A stretch of DNA of 64,000 nt, taken from positions 2,880,001-2,944,000 of the forward strand of contig OZ253375.1 of assembly GCA_965261005.1 (NCBI GenBank), written 5' to 3'. Each line of letters opens with the position of its first letter. Position 1 is the stretch's first letter. The DNA comes from Deinococcus sp. GTDB taxonomy: Bacteria; Deinococcota; Deinococci; Deinococcales; Deinococcaceae. Below the pieces are notes generated by a model. That model was given only the letters and a program-made list of their open reading frames with translations, was not told where the DNA came from and made no database searches. This document shows positions 12,447 through 49,561 of this stretch, one piece after another. The position numbers and the translations under genes are program-made.

Positions 12447-13333
12447 AGACCTCCTGCGAAAGTGGTGAGCTAGGGTGGGGAATGGCGCACGAACGGTACG
12501 AGCGGACGATGAAGATGAATCGCGTGCGGTTCAAACGGCGCACTGGGGTGTACCCGGAAACGTTCGAGGCCATGCGCATCGTTGTGGAGCAACGCGAGCA
12601 GACGAAGAAAAAGTCAGGCCGTCCCGCCGCCCTGAGTCCAGCCAAGCAGTTGCTGTTGACGCTGGAATTTTGGCGTGAGTACCGCAGCCAAGCCCACCTC
12701 GGCGACGATTGGGGCGTGCACGAAACCACCGTGCTGCGAACCATCGAACGGGTTGAAGCCGCCTTGCTGGCGAGCAGTCAGTTCACCTTGCCCAGTCGCC
12801 GGGCGCTGACCAGCGAAACGGTGTATAGCGCCGTGTTGGTCGATGTGTCCGAAGTGCCGTGCGAGCGACCCCAAAAAAACAGCGAGCGTGGTACAGCGGT
12901 AAGAAAAAGCGCCACACCCAGAAAATCCAGCTGATGATTGAGGCCGTTACAGGCCGCATCATGTGCGTGACAGCAGGCCAGGGCTCGACACACGACCTCA
13001 CGCTGCTGCGCGACTCGGGTGCCCGACTGCACCCGGAAACCGCGCTGATCGCCGACGCCGGGTATCAGGGCGTGAAGCGTGATCATGCTCACTCGCTGAC
13101 ACCGCACAAAGCCACCAAGCGCGCCCCGCTCACTTCTGAGCAACGGTACGAGAACCGCGTGCTGGCGCACTTCCGTCAAAAAATCGAACATGTCATCCGA
13201 CGGCTCAAGATCTTCCGGGTGCTCAAGGAGACGTACCGCCACCGAAGAAGGCGCTTTGGGCTGCGCCTGCATCTCCTCGCCGCACTCGTCAACCTGACCC
13301 TGGACGTCAAATCATGACTTTCGCAGGAGGTCT
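12447..13333 (+). mobile_element. IS5-family element, copy 1
   Basis: 17-bp TIR AGACCTCCTGCGAAAGT/ACTTTCGCAGGAGGTCT; AGT target duplication; two-ORF transposase. Confidence 0.92.
12482..13317 (+). CDS. IS5-family transposase, -1 frameshift at A7 (12873-12879)
   Basis: HTH ORF A plus DDE ORF B (YSGKKKRHT, HDL, ADAGYQG, IEHVIRRLK.F). Confidence 0.9.
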
Positions 13334-40822: not shown

Positions 40823-40862
40823 GGTCGCGCGCCTTGCTGGCCGACGTTCCCGACAAAGCCGA

Positions 40863-41120
40863 GTGTGTATGGGGGATAAAGGGGATCAGGGGGCGGGGGT
40901 GGATGTGCCGCCCAAAAAGAACTTGAAAAAACAGTGGCCCTGGACCGAGCTGATGAAGGCCGCCAGACAGCTGATCGAGGGCGTGTTCTCCAGCTTGGTG
41001 CGGACCAAACACCTCGACTTGCCGCAACTCAACTCCTTCTGGTCCATCCGCGCTTACGTCTGCCGCAACATCGCGGCCCATAACCTTGCCCTCGTCCACT
41101 GATCCTTGAGCACTCGGGGT
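40863..41120 (+). mobile_element. IS982-family transposase 3' remnant with right end
   Basis: GDKG..G...PPKKN...R.LIEGVFSSL...AHNL; ends ACTCGGGGT. Confidence 0.7.
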
Positions 41121-41231
41121 TAACATAGGTTGGAATTAAAGCAATCCCGTATGACGTGCTGCGCGTGGACGGTGGCAAGCACATATTGGCAAGACGAGCA
41201 CGCTGGTCAGAGCGGCGACCGGGAAGATATT

Positions 41232-42122
41232 AGACCTCTTGCGAAAGTCGTGGGTTAAGCTCAAGGGGTGGAGCGAGATCGCCTGAGACGGACACTGAAG
41301 ATGAACCGCAAGCAGTTCCGCCGACGCACCGGGGTGTATCCCGAAACCTTCGCCCAGATGGAAGCGGTGCTGATCGAGCGAGAAGGACAGAAGAAGAAAT
41401 CTGGTCGTCCAGCCGCGCTCAGGGTGGCTGAACAACTTCTGATGACACTGGAATTCTGGCGCGAGTACCGCACCTTCGCGCACCTGGGTGACGACTGGGG
41501 CGTCCATGAGACCACGGTGCACCGCACGGTGGAACGTGTCGAAGAAGCCCTGATCGCCAGCCAGCAGTTCCAGATGCCTAGAAAGCGCGTGTTCCAGCAA
41601 GCGCAGACGGTCTACAGCATCGTGGCCGTCGATGCGTCCGAAGTGCCGTGTGAACGACCCAAAAAAAGCAGCGCCGCTGGTACAGCGGCAAGAAGAAGCG
41701 GCACACCTTGAAGTTCCAAGTCCTGATCTGTACCGTGACTCAGCACATCCTGGGCACGGCGACGAGTGCTGGAGCCATCCATGATCTCAAGCTGTTTCGG
41801 CAGTCTGGGGTACGGTTTCCTCATGACACGGCCCTGATCGGGGATGCGGGGTATCAGGGTTTGTGGAGAAGCCACGGGCACGCCATCACCACGCATAAGG
41901 CGACCAAGTCCAAGCCGTTGACCAAAGAGCAGCGTCGAGAAAACCGGGTGCTGGCCTATACCCGCCAAGGAATCGAACACGTCATCCGTCGCATGAAGGT
42001 CTTTCGGGTGCTCAAGGGCGTCTACCGACATCGGCGGCGTCGCTTTGCCCTTCGGGTTCAGCTCATCGCCGCCCTCTGTAACCTTACCCGCGCCCAACCC
42101 TCCTGACTTTCGCAAGAGGTCT
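41232..42122 (+). mobile_element. IS5-family element, copy 2
   Basis: TIR AGACCTCTTGCGAAAGTC/GACTTTCGCAAGAGGTCT; flanks ATT and AAT. Confidence 0.92.
41268..42106 (+). CDS. IS5-family transposase, -1 frameshift at A7 (41661-41667)
   Basis: Homologous to 12482-13317; both ORFs open. Confidence 0.88.
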
Positions 42123-42254
42123 AATGGCTCGACTGATGGGACGACGAGTATCAGCAACCAGGACTTTGTTTTTGTCCTGAACAAATGCAAAACACAGCTT
42201 ACCGTCTCTAGGACGAGCGACTTGAAATTTCTAAACAAAAGTTTAACCAAGTAA
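42123..42254 (+). pseudogene. 3' half of the split LprI/DUF1311 gene
   Basis: NGSTDG...VLNKCKTQLTVSRTSDLKFL matches the LprI C-terminal C...LT..R...L helix; fuses in frame with 45473-45769. Confidence 0.8.
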
Positions 42255-42263
42255 TAGAGAGGG

Positions 42264-42497
42264 GTGGTCGCAACTTCTAATCTGAGCTTCGCGGCGGCCC
42301 GCAATCTGGTCAACGGGGGCAGCCTAGCCGAGCCGATTGATGGCGCCGCCGAAGCGCTCTACCTGCGGCTTCGGCAGCTTCAACCCTTCTTGGACCTACA
42401 AAACCTGGAGCAACCACAGCCACCGAGCGAGCTTGCACAGGGCATCGTCAAGATAGCCACCTTTGACGCGCTCATCCGCCGTTTTCCGCAGCGGTAA
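42264..42497 (+). pseudogene. Orphan GH19 toxin C-terminal tip
   Basis: SFAAARNLVNG...GAAEALYLRLRQL aligns by eye with the effector end TFTDARLHYVG...GRVTAAIYEKLKNI. Confidence 0.55.
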
Positions 42498-42512
42498 TCA
42501 AGGGGAACTGCA

Positions 42513-43301
42513 ATGCTCACCTCACTCTTTCCACGGCTTTTCTTGGCTACGTTGTGCCTTTCGCTCTCCGTTGTCAGTGTCGCGAGCAGCGTCGACTCCG
42601 CCGCTTGGCAGCGCGCCGCCGGCGCGTATACCATCAAGCTCGACAACGGCGATATAACCGTCCTCAAAGGCGGGAAGGTCGTGTTCTCGGCGAGGGGGCA
42701 GGCAGCGAAGTACGTCCCACCCAGCTTCGTGCTGACGCGCGGTAGACAGGACGAGATGGGCTGTCTGATCGAGGTGGCTTACACGCCGCTTTCCCTGGTG
42801 GGAGACGTGCTGAGTTACCAGCGCACCTACCGCAGCGTACCCGGCGAGTGCCCCGAGCTGCTGCGCGACACGGGAACGGTCGCCCTCAAAAGCGTGAATT
42901 TGCATACCCTAGCCCCCGAGAAGATCGTCAACCTCTTCCCGGAGGCAGCCGTATTGGGTGCCTTGCGCCGCGACGCCTTCATACGGCGGCTGGCCTCGGC
43001 GGACGTGAAGACCACCACGCTCGCTGGGTTAGGGCAGCTTCTGGCACGACAGGAGGACTGCTCGGCGCGCTTCACGCCGGACGCGGGGTTTGGCTTTCAC
43101 CATCTGAAGGGCAACCTGGTGGCAGTACGGCTCGGCCTAGCCTACAGTTGTCCCAGTCTTGCAGACGACCCCAAGGTGACGCAACTGGGATTGCTGCTGA
43201 GGGCGCCGGCCGCGCTGAAGAAAGCTCTCGCCCAAGGCGTGCTGATGAATGATATGCCAAACAGCAGCGTCATCTTCGACTTCGTGCCGGCCAAGCCGTA
43301 A
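42513..43301 (+). CDS. Secreted protein, putative immunity (paralogue of 45766-46446)
   Basis: Signal peptide; LF.E..V..AL..D, VAVRLGL.YS, QLGLLL.AP.AL shared with the paralogue. Confidence 0.8.
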   Translation: MLTSLFPRLFLATLCLSLSVVSVASSVDSAAWQRAAGAYTIKLDNGDITVLKGGKVVFSARGQAAKYVPPSFVLTRGRQDEMGCLIEVAYTPLSLVGDVLSYQRTYRSVPGECPELLRDTGTVALKSVNLHTLAPEKIVNLFPEAAVLGALRRDAFIRRLASADVKTTTLAGLGQLLARQEDCSARFTPDAGFGFHHLKGNLVAVRLGLAYSCPSLADDPKVTQLGLLLRAPAALKKALAQGVLMNDMPNSSVIFDFVPAKP

Positions 43302-43330
43302 ACCTTGGCATCTAACAGCAAGGCACGGAC

Positions 43331-43379
43331 GAAAAAAGGGGCAGGAGAGGGCCGGCACATGCCAGCCCTCTCCTCTTTC
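43331..43379. terminator. Intrinsic terminator between convergent genes
   Basis: A-run, then GGAGAGGG(C)CGGC...GCC(A)GCCCTCTCC hairpin. Confidence 0.65.
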
Positions 43380-43383
43380 AGAT

Positions 43384-44298
43384 TCAGCGAAAGGTCTTGA
43401 CCCAGTCCAGAATCGCCTGGTTGCTGGCGTCGGCATTTTCGTAGATGGCGGCGTGGGCTGCGCCGGGGATGATGGCGAGCTTGGCGTTCGGAATCGCCTT
43501 TTGCAGCATCTGTGATACGGCGACGGGATAGATGCTGTCCTGCTCGCCCACCAGCACCAGGGTGGGCACCTTGATCTGGTTCAGCAGCGAGCTGTAGTCC
43601 GGGCGGTTGGCGAGGGCGTAGGCGCCCCCGATGGCCGCCTGCACCGAGGCCCGCCGAATGATGGCCGACAGGTAGCTCACCTGGGCGGGCTGGTTCAGGC
43701 GGGTGGGGCCGCTGAGCATGTCCTTGATCAGGACCGGGACCAGCGAGTCCACGCCCTTTTGCGCGGCCTGGTCGGCCACGCCGCGCCACAAGCCGGCCTC
43801 GGCGGGATTGGCGGCGGCGGCGATGGTGTCAATCAGAATCAAACCGGAAAAGCGCTGCGGCGCGCGCTTGTACATCTCCAGCACGGTTGGGCCGCCCATG
43901 CTCATGCCGCCGATGATGGCCTGTTGCACGCCCAGGCGGTCCATCACGGCCAGCGCATCTTGGGCATAGGTGCTGATCATGCTGGGCACGTTGGGGGCCA
44001 CGCTCCTGCCGTAGCCGCGCAAGTCGAGCGTGATGACCTTGTAGCCGGCGGCGGCCAGGGCGGCCCGGTTGCGCGAAAACAGGTCGCCGGACAGCGGGTA
44101 GCCGTGGATGAGCAGCATCGGCTGTCCGGTGCCCTGCACTTGATAAAAAATCCGGGCGCCGTTCACGTCGAGGGAGCCGCTTTGCGCCTGGGTTTGGGCC
44201 TGAACCGTCTGCGGGGTGGCGCTTTGGGCGAGGGCGGGCGCGCTCAGGCACAGGGCGGCGAACAGGGAAAGCTTGAGGGGCTTGAGGTGTGGCGTCAC
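43384..44298 (-). CDS. Secreted alpha/beta hydrolase
   Basis: Signal peptide, IHGYP, DLRGYG.S, GGMSMGG, GEQD, GAAH; AAGGAG RBS. Confidence 0.92.
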   Translation of the reverse strand: MTPHLKPLKLSLFAALCLSAPALAQSATPQTVQAQTQAQSGSLDVNGARIFYQVQGTGQPMLLIHGYPLSGDLFSRNRAALAAAGYKVITLDLRGYGRSVAPNVPSMISTYAQDALAVMDRLGVQQAIIGGMSMGGPTVLEMYKRAPQRFSGLILIDTIAAAANPAEAGLWRGVADQAAQKGVDSLVPVLIKDMLSGPTRLNQPAQVSYLSAIIRRASVQAAIGGAYALANRPDYSSLLNQIKVPTLVLVGEQDSIYPVAVSQMLQKAIPNAKLAIIPGAAHAAIYENADASNQAILDWVKTFR

Positions 44299-44580
44299 GT
44301 TGGAACTCCTTTGGCGGTCAAGCTCAGTCTTGAACTGGCCCCTCAGTTCAGCGCCCGGGCGTGAGTTGCCTGAGATGTCCGGGTCAAGCGGCCTACACCC
44401 GATTTAAGGGAAGCTTTGAGGAATGAAGGCCCGCTTCAATTGGGGTCGCGCCGGGCGGATAAGGTTGGGACAAGGTTGTGTGACACGAGGAGAGACAGCA
44501 GAGCCGGGGCAAACTGTGGTTGATGAGTACCCAGTTCCCCGGCACTGCTGACGCTCCCCTTCGCGCGCTCGTCGCGCAAT

Positions 44581-45472
44581 AGACCTCCTGCGAAAGTAGA
44601 GGGCTAAAGTGGGGAGAGATGGCACACGCGAACTACGAGCAGACGATGCAGTTGAACAGGACGAGTTTTCGTCGACGTACCGGGGTGTATTTAGAGACCT
44701 ACCAGCAGATGCTGTCGGTGTTGGAAGCGCGCGAGCAGCACAAGAAGAAGTCGGGGCGTCCCGGCGCCTTGACCCTGGGCGAGCAACTGTTGCTGACGCT
44801 GATGTTCTGGCGTGAGTACCGCACCTTCTTTCATTTGGGCCAGGACTGGGGCGTCCACGAAACCACCGCACAAAGGACGGTGGAGCGGGTCGAAGACGCC
44901 TTGCTCGCCAGCGGCCAGTTCTCACTCCCCGGCAAGGCGGCCCTCAAAGACAACGGAACCGTGTGGACGGCCGTACTGGTGGACGTGAGCGAAGTCCCTT
45001 GCGAACGGCCAAAAAAAACAGCGGCGCTGGTACAGCGGTAAGAAAAAGCGCCATACCATCAAGGCTTAACTGCTGCTTTCTCCCGTCACCAAAGTGATCA
45101 TCTGCACCGCGACAAGTTGCGGGAAAACGCACGACCTGACCCTGTTCCATCAGCCGAAGACGGCCATTCATCCTGAAACCGAATTGATTGCGGACGCGGG
45201 CTACCAGGGCGTTCAACGAGACCACAAAAACGCGCATACCCCCCACAAAGCCAGCAAGCGCCGCGCCCTCACCTCGCAACAGCGCCGGGAAAACCGTGCG
45301 CTGGCGCGTGTTCGCTTGACTGTCGAGCATGTCATCCGCCGGCTCAAGGTCTTTCGCGTCCTCAAGGAAACCTACCGTCACCGCAGACGCCGCTTCCTGT
45401 TGCGCCTCAACCTCCTCGCCGCCCTCCACAACGCCATGCTCCCCGGCTCAGCTTGACTTTCGCAGGAGGTCT
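44581..45472 (+). mobile_element. IS5-family element, copy 3 (defective)
   Basis: TIR AGACCTCCTGCGAAAGT/ACTTTCGCAGGAGGTCT; flanks AAT and ATT. Confidence 0.92.
44619..45456 (+). pseudogene. IS5 transposase pseudogene
   Basis: Frameshift window is 1 nt shorter than in copies 1 and 2; in-frame TAA at 45067-45069 where the others have Gln. Confidence 0.85.
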
Positions 45473-45769
45473 ATTGAAAATGGTAACTGCCTTGCAGGTA
45501 TCATCGCGGGTCTTAACCCACTCCTGCTGAGCTTCAATCACCTGATGCTTGAGTACCGAGGCGGTCTTCAAAGTGCCGATCATTCCGTCGATGCGCTTCA
45601 ATAAAGCTTTGTAGACCTTGTTAAGCTGAATGTCGGCAGATTTAAATTGGTTCGCTGAGCATACTAGGAAGTTATCGCTGTCATAGCAATCGGCCTTCAG
45701 AGTAGTCTGGGCCAGGACTCGATTCGAGACGGCCACGGTAAGGAACACCACAGGCCAATGCCAGGTCAT
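45473..45769 (-). pseudogene. 5' half of LprI/DUF1311 lysozyme-inhibitor-like gene
   Basis: Signal peptide; C...C......AD..LN.VYK.L...AQQEW.K.RD..C; cut at the IS5 right end. Confidence 0.85.
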
Positions 45770-46446
45770 GGCAACAAGCTCGTTTGTCTCTTGAGAGTTT
45801 GCATCAGTAGACCTTTGTTCTGCCCAGCTTTCAGTGTGGATAGCAAGGCGGGGGGGGCGGGTAACAGCAGCCCCAGTTGGTCGAAACCAAAATTACAGGT
45901 TTGGCTCGGCGAGTACGGCAAACCTAAGCGCACGGCCACCTTGTCGCCCTGCACAGCATAAAGCGCGAAGTTCGTCAGCCCCTCGCGGTCCAGATTGGTG
46001 CAGCCGGGTTTGCCCTGCCCATAATCGTCCAACAGCTCATCCAATGAGGTCGGATGTTGCCCAACCAACACCTTTTTTACGTAAGGGTCCATCTTCAACG
46101 CCTGAAATACATCTTGTTCTTTGAAGAGGTCCAGTAAGCTCACCGGGCGACCTGTATCTAGGTCAAACGTAGCGAAGGCCAGCAGAACCGCTGGACTGGC
46201 GTAGCAGTTGTTCTCGGTATTGGTGTACACGCTGGTATATGGCGGCGCCACGGCCAGCACCGCGCCCAGCACCTTCGACTGTTCCCCATTCGCGCAACGT
46301 TTCGGCTGAGCGTACAGGGTGATGGCGTGTCCGGCCCGGCTGGTGGTGGCCTGTTGAGGAGTCCACCGGGTGGTCCAGCCGTTGATATGTACGGTGGCGG
46401 CCTGGGCGGTCCCCCATAGCAGCATGACAATGGGCCATACCCTCAC
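45766..46446 (-). CDS. Secreted protein, putative cognate immunity protein
   Basis: Signal peptide (…TAQA); start overlaps the effector stop and stop overlaps the LprI start; 4 Cys. Confidence 0.8.
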   Translation of the reverse strand: MRVWPIVMLLWGTAQAATVHINGWTTRWTPQQATTSRAGHAITLYAQPKRCANGEQSKVLGAVLAVAPPYTSVYTNTENNCYASPAVLLAFATFDLDTGRPVSLLDLFKEQDVFQALKMDPYVKKVLVGQHPTSLDELLDDYGQGKPGCTNLDREGLTNFALYAVQGDKVAVRLGLPYSPSQTCNFGFDQLGLLLPAPPALLSTLKAGQNKGLLMQTLKRQTSLLP

Positions 46447-48905
46447 GGTTTCTCCTCGTGCGGCTCCATCACCGGTATATTTTTCAGTTTCTCGTAGATA
46501 GCGGCGGTGACGCGACCTACTACGGCGGTGTCAAATGGGCCAACGTAGTGGAGCCGGGCGTCGGTGAAGGTGCTGGCGTTCAAGCGTTTGCCCTGTAAGA
46601 AGTCCTCCAAGGAACCGGCCTTGGTATATAGGCCCTGCGACACCCCTTGTACCAGGGCACGCACAGCGATGTCCGGTCGGTTCATGGCGTCAGGGTCGTC
46701 CGTGAAGTTAATGGGGTGCCCCTGGTCGTCCTGAACAGTGCTGGAGAGGCGTTTGGTCCACTCAGCGTAGTGGCTGCGCCCGGTAATTTGTACCAGACCG
46801 CGTCCACGAAAACGGTAGCCGTCGCCGCTGGCCTCGTTGCCGTTTCCGAGTTTGTTGGCGTACACATGGTTACCAAAGCGCTCGGGGTTGCGGGCATAAG
46901 GCTCGGCGGAGGCGACAGTTGGGAACCGGCCCGGAAAGACGAGGTGCGCCCGTTCGGCGGTGTAGTACATCCCCTCGGTCTTAGGATGCAGGCCGGATTC
47001 ATGGCTGGCGTTGGCGAGCATCACGGCGATCTCGGCGGGATTAATGACGCCCTCCCGTACCGCCTCCGCGATAATCTTGGGCACGTAGACCTCCACGTTG
47101 GCTTTGGACGGTGCTTGATTCGCGTCCAGTCGCCGGGTGGCGTCCAGTACCGCCTGTTGCGCCGTCTGCACGAAGACCTGCGATATCACGGGCTGTAATT
47201 GGGGACCGCTGGGTTGCTGAGCTGGCGGGTTCCGTCCGGGCGGCATCGGTACCGGCCCTAATTTTGGCTGTGGTGGCGCTTTGGACGCGGTCTGCGGTTT
47301 TGGAGCGCGGCCGGGAACGGGACGGCCCGCTGCGTCTATCAGGTGCAGCGCACCTTGATAGGCGTGGGGGTGGACACTCTCAGCGCTGGGGGTCCAGGTG
47401 AGCGCGAGCGTCACGCCGTCCGGACTTAAAGTGCCACTGAGCCGGCCGCTCAGATGATCGCCGTCGTATTCGAGCAGGTTCAGTTTGCCTTGGGCGTCGA
47501 TGCTGCCGCTCAAGGTGAGCTGTCCTTTGCCGTAGCTGTACGCGCCGTCGATATTTTGGTTCGTGCGCGACAGGGTTGCCTCAATGGCCTTGCCGGCAAG
47601 GGTGCCGGAGAAGACGCGCGTCCACAGGGGAACGTGCAGCAAGTCGAAGGGTGACGTGGGAGGTGCTACCTGGCGTTGCAGGGCGGTTATAGGAGGGGCA
47701 CTCCGGCCGACCTGTACCGCCGCATCGTCCGTTTTCCAAGCGCCGAGCGTGGTGTCGTGAGAAACGCTTTGTGTAAAGCGTTTGCCCGCGTCCCGCGCCT
47801 CCTGCTCCAGAGCGGGGTCGGGGTCAATGCCCTTGCCCGTCACCTTCCCTTGCGCCTGCTGATAGGTGTGCGTCACCTCGTGGGCCAGCAGCTCTTGCCC
47901 CTCGGCGCTCTCGGTGTCCAGCTTGCCTTGCTGAAAGAAGATGTTCGTCCCGGTAGTGGCGGCGATGGCCTGAACCGACTTGGCGAAGCTATGGGCGGCA
48001 GGGTCGGCGTGGACCCGCACCGTTTGCAAGTGTTCTCTCGGAATGTTCAGCCCCACTTCCAATTGCCGCTGTACCGCGAGAGGCAGGGGTTGACCGCTGC
48101 CCCTCGGGATCGCTTGGGGAGCAAGGGCGTCTTCCTCTGTCAGCTTCCGTTGCAAGGCGTGCAGTTCCAGCGCCTTCTGATCCTGCGCTTGGAATTGCTG
48201 ATGCTCTTGTTCAGCCTCGTCCAGCGCTCTCTGCACCGAAGGCCGCTCACCGGCGGGTAAACGTTGCAGGACGACCTGTGCCACGTGTTTCCCTTGCGGC
48301 TGGCGTTGCACCAGGGCCAAGCTCTGCCCCAGCTCGGCGTAACGCTGGATGGTGGGGGAAGTGTCGCTTCGGAAGCGCTGCGCCAAGTCCTGCGCTGCCC
48401 GCTGCTGAATGGTCGGCCAGGCGGACATGGAGACGAAGCCGCTGTGCTGGTCGGCCTGCCGTTGCAACGACACCGCTTCATGGGCGTAGCGCTGGGCGTG
48501 GTCGGCGTAGGAAGGCTGTGACCTCGTCGGACCGCTGAAGATGGGGGGCAAGGCCGGCACCCCAGCTTGCTCGGCCTGACGTTGTAGCGCGGCTTGCAGG
48601 GCGTCCCTGGGCAGGTCGTGTTCCAGTTCGGCGATCTGACGCTGCAAAGCCAACTGCGATTGCTGACGCTGCAAGACCAAGGTGCGTTGGACCTGAGCCG
48701 CTTCGAGGACTGGGGCGGCGCTTGAACGCTGGGCGACGGCTGGTGTTGCGAAAAACTGCTGGTAACGCTCAAGGGTGCGCTGTTGCAGGTCAAGCTGGAT
48801 GGCGGCCTGATCCGGGACTGGCAGCGGGGGGATGTAGCTGATCTGCGGCGCTGCGGCTGACCTCTGCTGACCTTGCTTGCGCTCCTCGTAATCGGAATCG
48901 GACAT
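46443..48905 (-). CDS. DUF4157 (eCIS-associated HExxH) protein with C-terminal GH19 lysozyme-like domain
   Basis: GQPLP...VRVH.D..A......A.A.T.G..IFF..G...LLAHEVTH..QQ; HESG...YANKLGNG...GDGYRFRGRGLVQITGR; AGGAGG RBS. Confidence 0.9.
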   Translation of the reverse strand: MSDSDYEERKQGQQRSAAAPQISYIPPLPVPDQAAIQLDLQQRTLERYQQFFATPAVAQRSSAAPVLEAAQVQRTLVLQRQQSQLALQRQIAELEHDLPRDALQAALQRQAEQAGVPALPPIFSGPTRSQPSYADHAQRYAHEAVSLQRQADQHSGFVSMSAWPTIQQRAAQDLAQRFRSDTSPTIQRYAELGQSLALVQRQPQGKHVAQVVLQRLPAGERPSVQRALDEAEQEHQQFQAQDQKALELHALQRKLTEEDALAPQAIPRGSGQPLPLAVQRQLEVGLNIPREHLQTVRVHADPAAHSFAKSVQAIAATTGTNIFFQQGKLDTESAEGQELLAHEVTHTYQQAQGKVTGKGIDPDPALEQEARDAGKRFTQSVSHDTTLGAWKTDDAAVQVGRSAPPITALQRQVAPPTSPFDLLHVPLWTRVFSGTLAGKAIEATLSRTNQNIDGAYSYGKGQLTLSGSIDAQGKLNLLEYDGDHLSGRLSGTLSPDGVTLALTWTPSAESVHPHAYQGALHLIDAAGRPVPGRAPKPQTASKAPPQPKLGPVPMPPGRNPPAQQPSGPQLQPVISQVFVQTAQQAVLDATRRLDANQAPSKANVEVYVPKIIAEAVREGVINPAEIAVMLANASHESGLHPKTEGMYYTAERAHLVFPGRFPTVASAEPYARNPERFGNHVYANKLGNGNEASGDGYRFRGRGLVQITGRSHYAEWTKRLSSTVQDDQGHPINFTDDPDAMNRPDIAVRALVQGVSQGLYTKAGSLEDFLQGKRLNASTFTDARLHYVGPFDTAVVGRVTAAIYEKLKNIPVMEPHEEKP

Positions 48906-49247: not shown

Positions 49248-49561
49248 CAGCCCGCCCAGGTGAGCTACCTGTCGGCCATCATTCGGCGGGCCTCGGTGCA
49301 GGCGGCCATCGGGGGCGCCTACGCCCTCGCCAACCGCCCGGACTACAGCTCGCTGCTGAACCAGATCAAGGTGCCCACCCTGGTGCTGGTGGGCGAGCAG
49401 GACAGCATCTATCCCGTCGCCGTATCACAGATGCTGCAAAAGGCGATTCCGAACGCCAAGCTCGCCATCATCCCCGGCGCGGCCCACGCCGCCATCTACG
49501 AAAATGCCGACGCCAGCAACCAGGCGATTCTGGACTGGGTCAAGACCTTTCGCTGAATCTG
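49248..49561 (+). repeat. 314-bp copy of the 3' end of the hydrolase gene (inverted relative to 43379-43692); promoterless fragment
   Basis: Identical translation; only one synonymous mismatch seen (GCA/GCG). Confidence 0.95.

Follow-up and report, generated by a model that had tools for sequence, protein, structure and literature searches.

A 2458-bp segment, at positions 42123 to 44580 of the 64,000-nucleotide window analysed here, is inverted between two different IS5-family insertion sequences, with its breakpoints at the tips of the elements and one AAT at either end. The inversion is real, as un-flipping the segment rejoins a split IS remnant, rejoins the two halves of an LprI gene and returns an orphan toxin-gene fragment to the strand of the toxin. 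A precise inversion at the IS tips had already been proposed in an initial annotation, and it is borne out by the exact reconstruction of both targets. The best reading of its origin is a one-off exchange inside the 8-bp tip shared by two independent insertions, a view in which our confidence is evenly balanced. The host genome (3.27 Mb, two contigs, 67% G+C), probably Deinococcus-like to judge by its gene content, carries the segment in an IS-rich island around a putative eCIS-core toxin gene (46443 to 48905).

The elements on either side of the segment, copy 2 and copy 3, are in direct orientation on the plus strand, and we take them to be IS5-family members of the ISL2 group. Copy 2 (41232 to 42122, 891 bp) encodes its transposase in two intact frames (orfA at 41268 to 41711, an orfB frame ending at 42106), with an A7 run near 41660. 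It is one of nine identical copies in the genome (100% to the 8 others), and a perfect 3-bp ANT duplication is found at seven of the nine. Copy 3 (44581 to 45472, 892 bp) is single-copy, 66% identical to copy 2 and without a sibling or donor elsewhere in the host genome; it was rightly described as dead, its orfB being interrupted by a nonsense codon (TAA, 45067 to 45069). Both elements match HTH_Tnp_4 (PF13613) and DDE_Tnp_4 (PF13359) above cut-off, with the two halves in separate frames. The IS5-family model NF033581 is the best NCBIfam match of all four transposase halves (59.9 and 75.7; 64.8 and 83 bits), each half falling below the 140-bit cut-off because the frames were scanned separately. 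Another relative, copy 1 (12447 to 13333, plus strand), has intact frames and a TIR identical to that of copy 3, making it a candidate source of a trans-acting enzyme. The flanks first reported for copies 2, 3 and 1 (ATT/AAT, AAT/ATT and a perfect AGT/AGT) are confirmed, and an ANT duplication is given for bacterial IS5 in the accessible text of one source (PMC4482050).

A copy 2-type element at C1:1921652-1922542 has AGT/ATT flanks. A swap of flanks between it and copy 2 was ruled out, since a paralogous locus at 1.466 Mb that lacks the element is colinear with both flanks; it resembles a simple insertion with the two copies of its duplication unlike at the middle base. Recurrent middle-base mismatches in other genomes may hint that this base can be supplied by the donor site. 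Two MITEs, of 113 bp (C1:2122652-2122764) and 60 bp (C1:2179058-2179117), have variant ends of this TIR and ATT/ATT flanks, and a lone left-end fragment lies at C1:1000860.

The two targets are shared out between the elements by end. Target 1, the IS remnant, has both left ends, with a duplication of ATT at 41229 to 41231 (plus strand) and a partner AAT at 44578 to 44580. Target 2, lprI, has both right ends, with ATT at 45473 to 45475 (plus strand) and AAT at 42123 to 42125. Both empty sites rebuild exactly, each with one 3-bp duplication. At target 1, the proximal half of the remnant (44472 to 44580, plus strand) followed by the reverse complement of the distal half (41152 to 41228, minus strand) gives a single colinear match of 187 columns, at 87-92%, to 12 copies in the genome. 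The matched repeat, 1166 bp long with a 362-aa transposase-like ORF, is presumably an IS4-like multi-copy IS. This remnant is a second, independent proof site that the initial annotation had overlooked. The interval from 40860 to 41230 contains nested remnants, namely a 3′ piece of an IS982 transposase, a 33-37-bp piece of a repeat that also occurs in at least 12 other places, and part of the split IS remnant.

At target 2, the 5′ half of LprI (45473 to 45769, minus strand, 99 codons) matches the Pfam LprI family (PF07007) over model positions 15-73 of 106 and aligns at 53% with residues 19-98 of an intact homolog (P0002). The 3′ half (42123 to 42254, plus strand) matches no Pfam family by itself; against the C-terminus of P0002 (residues 101-138) it shows 66% identity (E 9e-15), so that the homology to LprI C-termini put forward as a check on the inversion was found. 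The halves join, as had been claimed, into a protein of 141 aa with four cysteines (28, 37, 92 and 120), and the full LprI domain with its conserved cysteines is seen only when the halves are read jointly. Scored with a family HMM built from 13 of the 17 family LprI loci, the join reaches 42.2 bits vs 35.1 bits for the 5′ half, a modest gain; the joined score was attained by one of 300 shuffled tails and by none of 1000 random genomic tails. A search at the 5.8-billion scale returned the 5′ half itself alone, and two distant loci were recovered for it in metagenomes.

Inside the segment, an orphan toxin-gene fragment (42264 to 42497, plus strand) matches internal sequence of two paralogous toxins at 85% amino acid identity, and positions 42283 to 42457 are 91% identical to a stretch within their genes. 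The claim that un-flipping aligns the strands of the toxin genes holds for this fragment, which shares the strand of the toxin only in the un-flipped order. A 262-aa ORF downstream (42513 to 43301, plus strand) shows weak likeness to 45766 to 46446 (26%, E 6e-4) and is a putative orphan immunity gene. The product of the resident toxin gene (46443 to 48905, minus strand) is an eCIS-core protein (PF13699, E 4.5e-21) and a putative antibacterial toxin; a weak lysozyme-like match near its C-terminus (PF18013, E 0.003) is below cut-off. A putative toxin-immunity cassette was split by the flip, and its orphan fragment and immunity-like ORF now lie downstream of the copy 2 transposase gene, where read-through could reach them. 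Paralogous toxin loci of the eCIS-core type number at least 13 in the genome (11 others on C1; C2:101285-102452), with a common 5′ region of 1.1-1.2 kb (84-94%) and differing C-termini, two of the toxins (1064-1067 aa, at C1:93004 and C1:2944848) being near-identical. One IS-packed toxin locus (C1:1026500-1038500) contains two identical inverted 1192-bp elements and a copy 2-type element.

The segment also carries an alpha/beta hydrolase gene (43384 to 44298, minus strand), the 3′ end of which forms copy A (43379 to 43692, minus strand) of a 314-bp repeat. Copy B lies at 49248 to 49561 (plus strand). The copies are inverted and 100% identical, as previously noted, and un-flipping turns them into a direct repeat that brackets a toxin cassette of about 5 kb; a similar G+C-rich hairpin follows each copy. 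In the un-flipped order these direct repeats suggest that a circle integrated recently or that the locus underwent a local duplication. An ancestral neighbourhood of hydrolase and Spondin_N was not recovered, a Spondin gene being present in 0 of 14 hydrolase loci and the hydrolase in 0 of 3 foreign Spondin loci. Long exact repeats bracketing toxin genes are no general rule among the 12 other toxin loci checked, and the repeats found there, where traced, are either copies of an IS or repeats internal to the cassette. Of the 61 genomes searched with hydrolase DNA, 34 gave a match (the host itself among them), none of the others closer than species-level distance, and no sister strain was found.

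Flank mismatch alone does not carry the evidence for the inversion, since 10 of 49 related paired elements in other genomes also lack a perfect duplication, five of them with ATT/AAT flanks, and the other 39 have one (among the matches listed). This survey covered at least 132 loci, with full flanks for 80. In a hand-picked sample of 20 regions from relatives, 15 of the 17 cleanly paired elements have a perfect duplication, three regions being left out (two with single ends and one three-ended, its full element mismatched). Of 125 genomes of the host family, 61 have ends of the copy 2/3 type, as do many other bacteria. An exact degenerate pattern detected no abutted pair of such ends in the genome collection, none is present in the 132 loci among the matches listed, and a reciprocal swap of flanks was seen in none of 10 hand-picked close-pair loci. 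An Alkanindiges locus (L063, 4002-7793) has two near-identical direct copies 793 bp apart, both with ATT/AAT flanks in a pattern that is not reciprocal, the second carrying a 1.2-kb insert. At another locus (L201, 2646-3669), a full element with AGT/ATT flanks has a degenerate MITE end 20 bp away.

Contigs from sequencing run X1 (about 30-fold, possibly the source sample and hence no independent strain) support three of the four IS junctions and show no un-inverted form, the order that an assembly error would have led one to expect in the reads. A 3299-bp contig (44531 to 47829) spans copy 3 and its flanks from two different targets with zero differences, and in another the left flank runs into a left end of copy 2. 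Copy 2 is collapsed in the short contigs (depth 361 vs about 30), and its right junction is absent among the pieces listed. The short contigs leave either path through the 314-bp repeat, the four IS junctions being identical on both. Run X2 contains 0.30 of the words, at low depth, and none of the pieces listed for it reaches across the junctions. A strand-change joint, the mark of the other orientation, is present in the contigs of neither run, contigs being prone to drop rare variants. Three X1 joints (41673>45028, 44615>44794 and 45057>45454) were considered as a deletion; their single common depth and short sides led us to read them as another IS homolog in that run.

The breakpoints fall inside homologous TIRs. 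These are 17 bp long and agree between copies 2 and 3 in 16 of 17 terminal bases, position 8 being T in copy 2 and C in copy 3. Any two ends of the elements are inverted repeats (16/17) with the bodies direct, and the longest other inverted identity between the bodies is 11 bp. Both TIR variants are kept, as had been observed, together with both middle bases of the duplications, and the TIR mismatch has not been converted. The exchange window is 8 bp at the tips, including the T of the duplication, close to the 7 bp or so estimated before. The assertion that recombination cannot invert DNA between such elements stands for their direct bodies and fails for their ends, which are 16/17 inverted repeats and have a precedent in ISWpi1, at least in the portion of that study available (PMC3004938). 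Homeologous recombination within the IS bodies was ruled out, copy 2 being no hybrid and the elements direct.

Four histories fit this layout: a flip through the inner ends, a flip through the outer ends, and a Tn10-type deletion-inversion in either direction. We infer from it the order of events, the ends that moved and the enzyme that acted. Two related IS5-family elements would have inserted about 2.5 kb apart in the IS-rich toxin island, one into the old IS remnant and the other into lprI, each leaving the usual ATT duplication. Both target sites are observed, and the independence of the insertions is deduced. One end of each element, the two facing each other as inverted repeats of 21 bp that differ at two positions, would then have exchanged strands once within the shared 8-bp tip, flipping the DNA between them. 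The specification of inner ends in the initial annotation does not survive, since a flip of 41232 to 45472 through the outer ends, or either Tn10-type route, gives the same sequence as a flip of 42123 to 44580. The exchange is most readily understood as short-homology recombination between TIRs, completed by host repair and possibly triggered by a nick or break made at the tips by an active transposase of the copy 2 family or of copy 1.

This exchange is favoured because two ordinary insertions and one rare step suffice, because both empty sites rebuild with one duplication each, and because the ends agree in 16 of 17 bases, the match running on into the flank, and neither element looks hybrid. 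In ISWpi1, an IS5-family element, 2 of 22 loci were inverted through recombination in 23-bp TIRs, and both inversions lost the TIR mismatch via conversion, according to the text available (PMC3004938). With both mismatches retained in the present case, a crossover has to lie within a single 8-bp block, which counts against plain recombination. By our estimate, retention is automatic with transposase-made joints and has roughly even odds under recombination; the unconverted layout leaves recombination possible but cannot prove it. In recA mutants of D. radiodurans, joins at 4-11-bp repeats gave deletions only and no inversions in the accessible part of the report (PMC8149714). The region from 41000 to 45800 holds 336 other 8-mer inverted pairs (overlapping counts, those within TIRs included), so plain microhomology alone leaves the choice of the tips unexplained. 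The exact joints, the mixed C/T ends in 3 of 39 perfectly duplicated elements (among the matches listed) and the targeting of element ends by IS30, as far as its source could be consulted (PMC9333248), all support involvement of a transposase. That an IS5-group DDE transposase pairs the ends of two different IS species tip-to-tip, with neither a new target nor loss of DNA, is doubtful. If true, such an enzyme would be a sloppy, reversible invertase for DNA between family members, including dead copies and MITEs. An intermediate state was found in none of the relatives.

The main competitor to the tip exchange, tentative yet to be taken seriously, is a Tn10-type deletion-inversion by a mixed pair of copies 2 and 3 that once stood inverted at one target around a middle now lost without trace. 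A transposase acting in trans would cut the inside ends and insert them at a site 2.5 kb distant, with right ends entering lprI or left ends entering the IS remnant, deleting the middle, inverting the stretch and leaving the elements direct, irreversibly. A Tn10-style event was among the options first proposed, and the published product, in the text available, matches exactly, with the middle lost, the segment and second IS inverted and the elements direct (PMC2723962). This route accounts for the exact tips without conversion and for the sorting of left and right ends to separate targets; like ends also resemble each other more, left with left and right with right matching at 24 and 22 of 30 bases vs 18-19 for cross pairs. 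The mixed C/T ends imply that such ends can transpose, and in one relative a MITE end does lie 20 bp from a full element. The route demands, however, two mixed-end events, or insertion exactly at an existing end followed by one mixed event. Its copies are 66% identical rather than near-identical, sharing only TIRs, and copy 3 has neither sibling nor donor in the genome. Targeting of ends is documented for IS30 in the consulted part of PMC9333248, and no case for the IS5-type group was found in the literature searched. An abutted end pair, which would be a precursor for this route, was found neither in the genome collection nor in the 132 loci among the matches listed.

Three further readings are much less probable than either. 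The segment had been suggested to be still invertible, and a working switch would have the transposase flip it repeatedly, with both orientations coexisting. Its inner ends, a left and a right, do still form the same imperfect inverted repeat, and transposase frames are intact in copy 1 and the copy 2 family. Such a switch is quite improbable, since flipping back leaves LprI broken: copy 3 stays in lprI, the other target is a dead remnant and no gene is restored. The contigs of X1 and X2, which would drop rare forms, show no strand-change joint, the layout recurs in none of the 10 close-pair loci, and just two promoter-like sites lie in 41100 to 46000 vs 0.7 expected by chance. It is very improbable that identical inverted copies underwent an ordinary inversion and one was then replaced by the other IS type via tip-primed repair. 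The extra step has left no trace in the sequence, and to our knowledge such repair is known only from eukaryotic P elements. The flank pattern would be the same, and inversions between identical copies are common in the accessible part of one account (PMC11708052). That the nine identical copies of copy 2 misled the assembly is the most improbable reading of all. Copy 2 is collapsed in the short contigs, its right junction is missing from the pieces listed and more than one path leads through the 314-bp repeat, but the single contig across single-copy copy 3 joins flanks of both targets and a second joins the left flank to copy 2.

Even IS elements whose bodies are too diverged for recombination, and which stand in the direct orientation generally regarded as incapable of inversion, can flip the genes between them via 17-bp shared ends. 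Events of this kind could be giving rise, unnoticed, to small inversions and missing target duplications. No case of an inversion between two different IS species was found in the literature searched, which lay mostly outside subscription journals. The present case is a single event with close published precedents, a variant of known IS-end rearrangements in which the inversion is well supported; it would weigh more if the transposase itself proved to perform the exchange.

Tn10 is a true composite whose two IS10 copies are near-identical. Its deletion-inversion likewise leaves two direct IS around an inverted segment with target duplications split reciprocally, as far as the source text extends (PMC2723962), whereas copies 2 and 3 share 66% identity, copy 3 is dead and no composite precursor of the pair is known. 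ISWpi1 of Wolbachia provides IS5-family ends, very short homology and a natural inversion with breakpoints in the TIRs; in the available text it differs in recombining both TIRs of one self-flipping element with conversion of the mismatch (PMC3004938), while in the present case each TIR comes from a different element, host genes were flipped and no conversion took place. IS30 resembles this case in that a DDE transposase acts at the ends of other elements and yields inversions, but it is described in the consulted portion as copy-out with junctions spaced by 2 bp (PMC9333248), and no abutted junction is seen here. With IS5 elements of the NF033581 type, these elements share HTH_Tnp_4 and DDE_Tnp_4 domains, a 17-bp TIR and a 3-bp ANT duplication, and they differ in that the transposase is split over two frames, each half scoring below the family cut-off.
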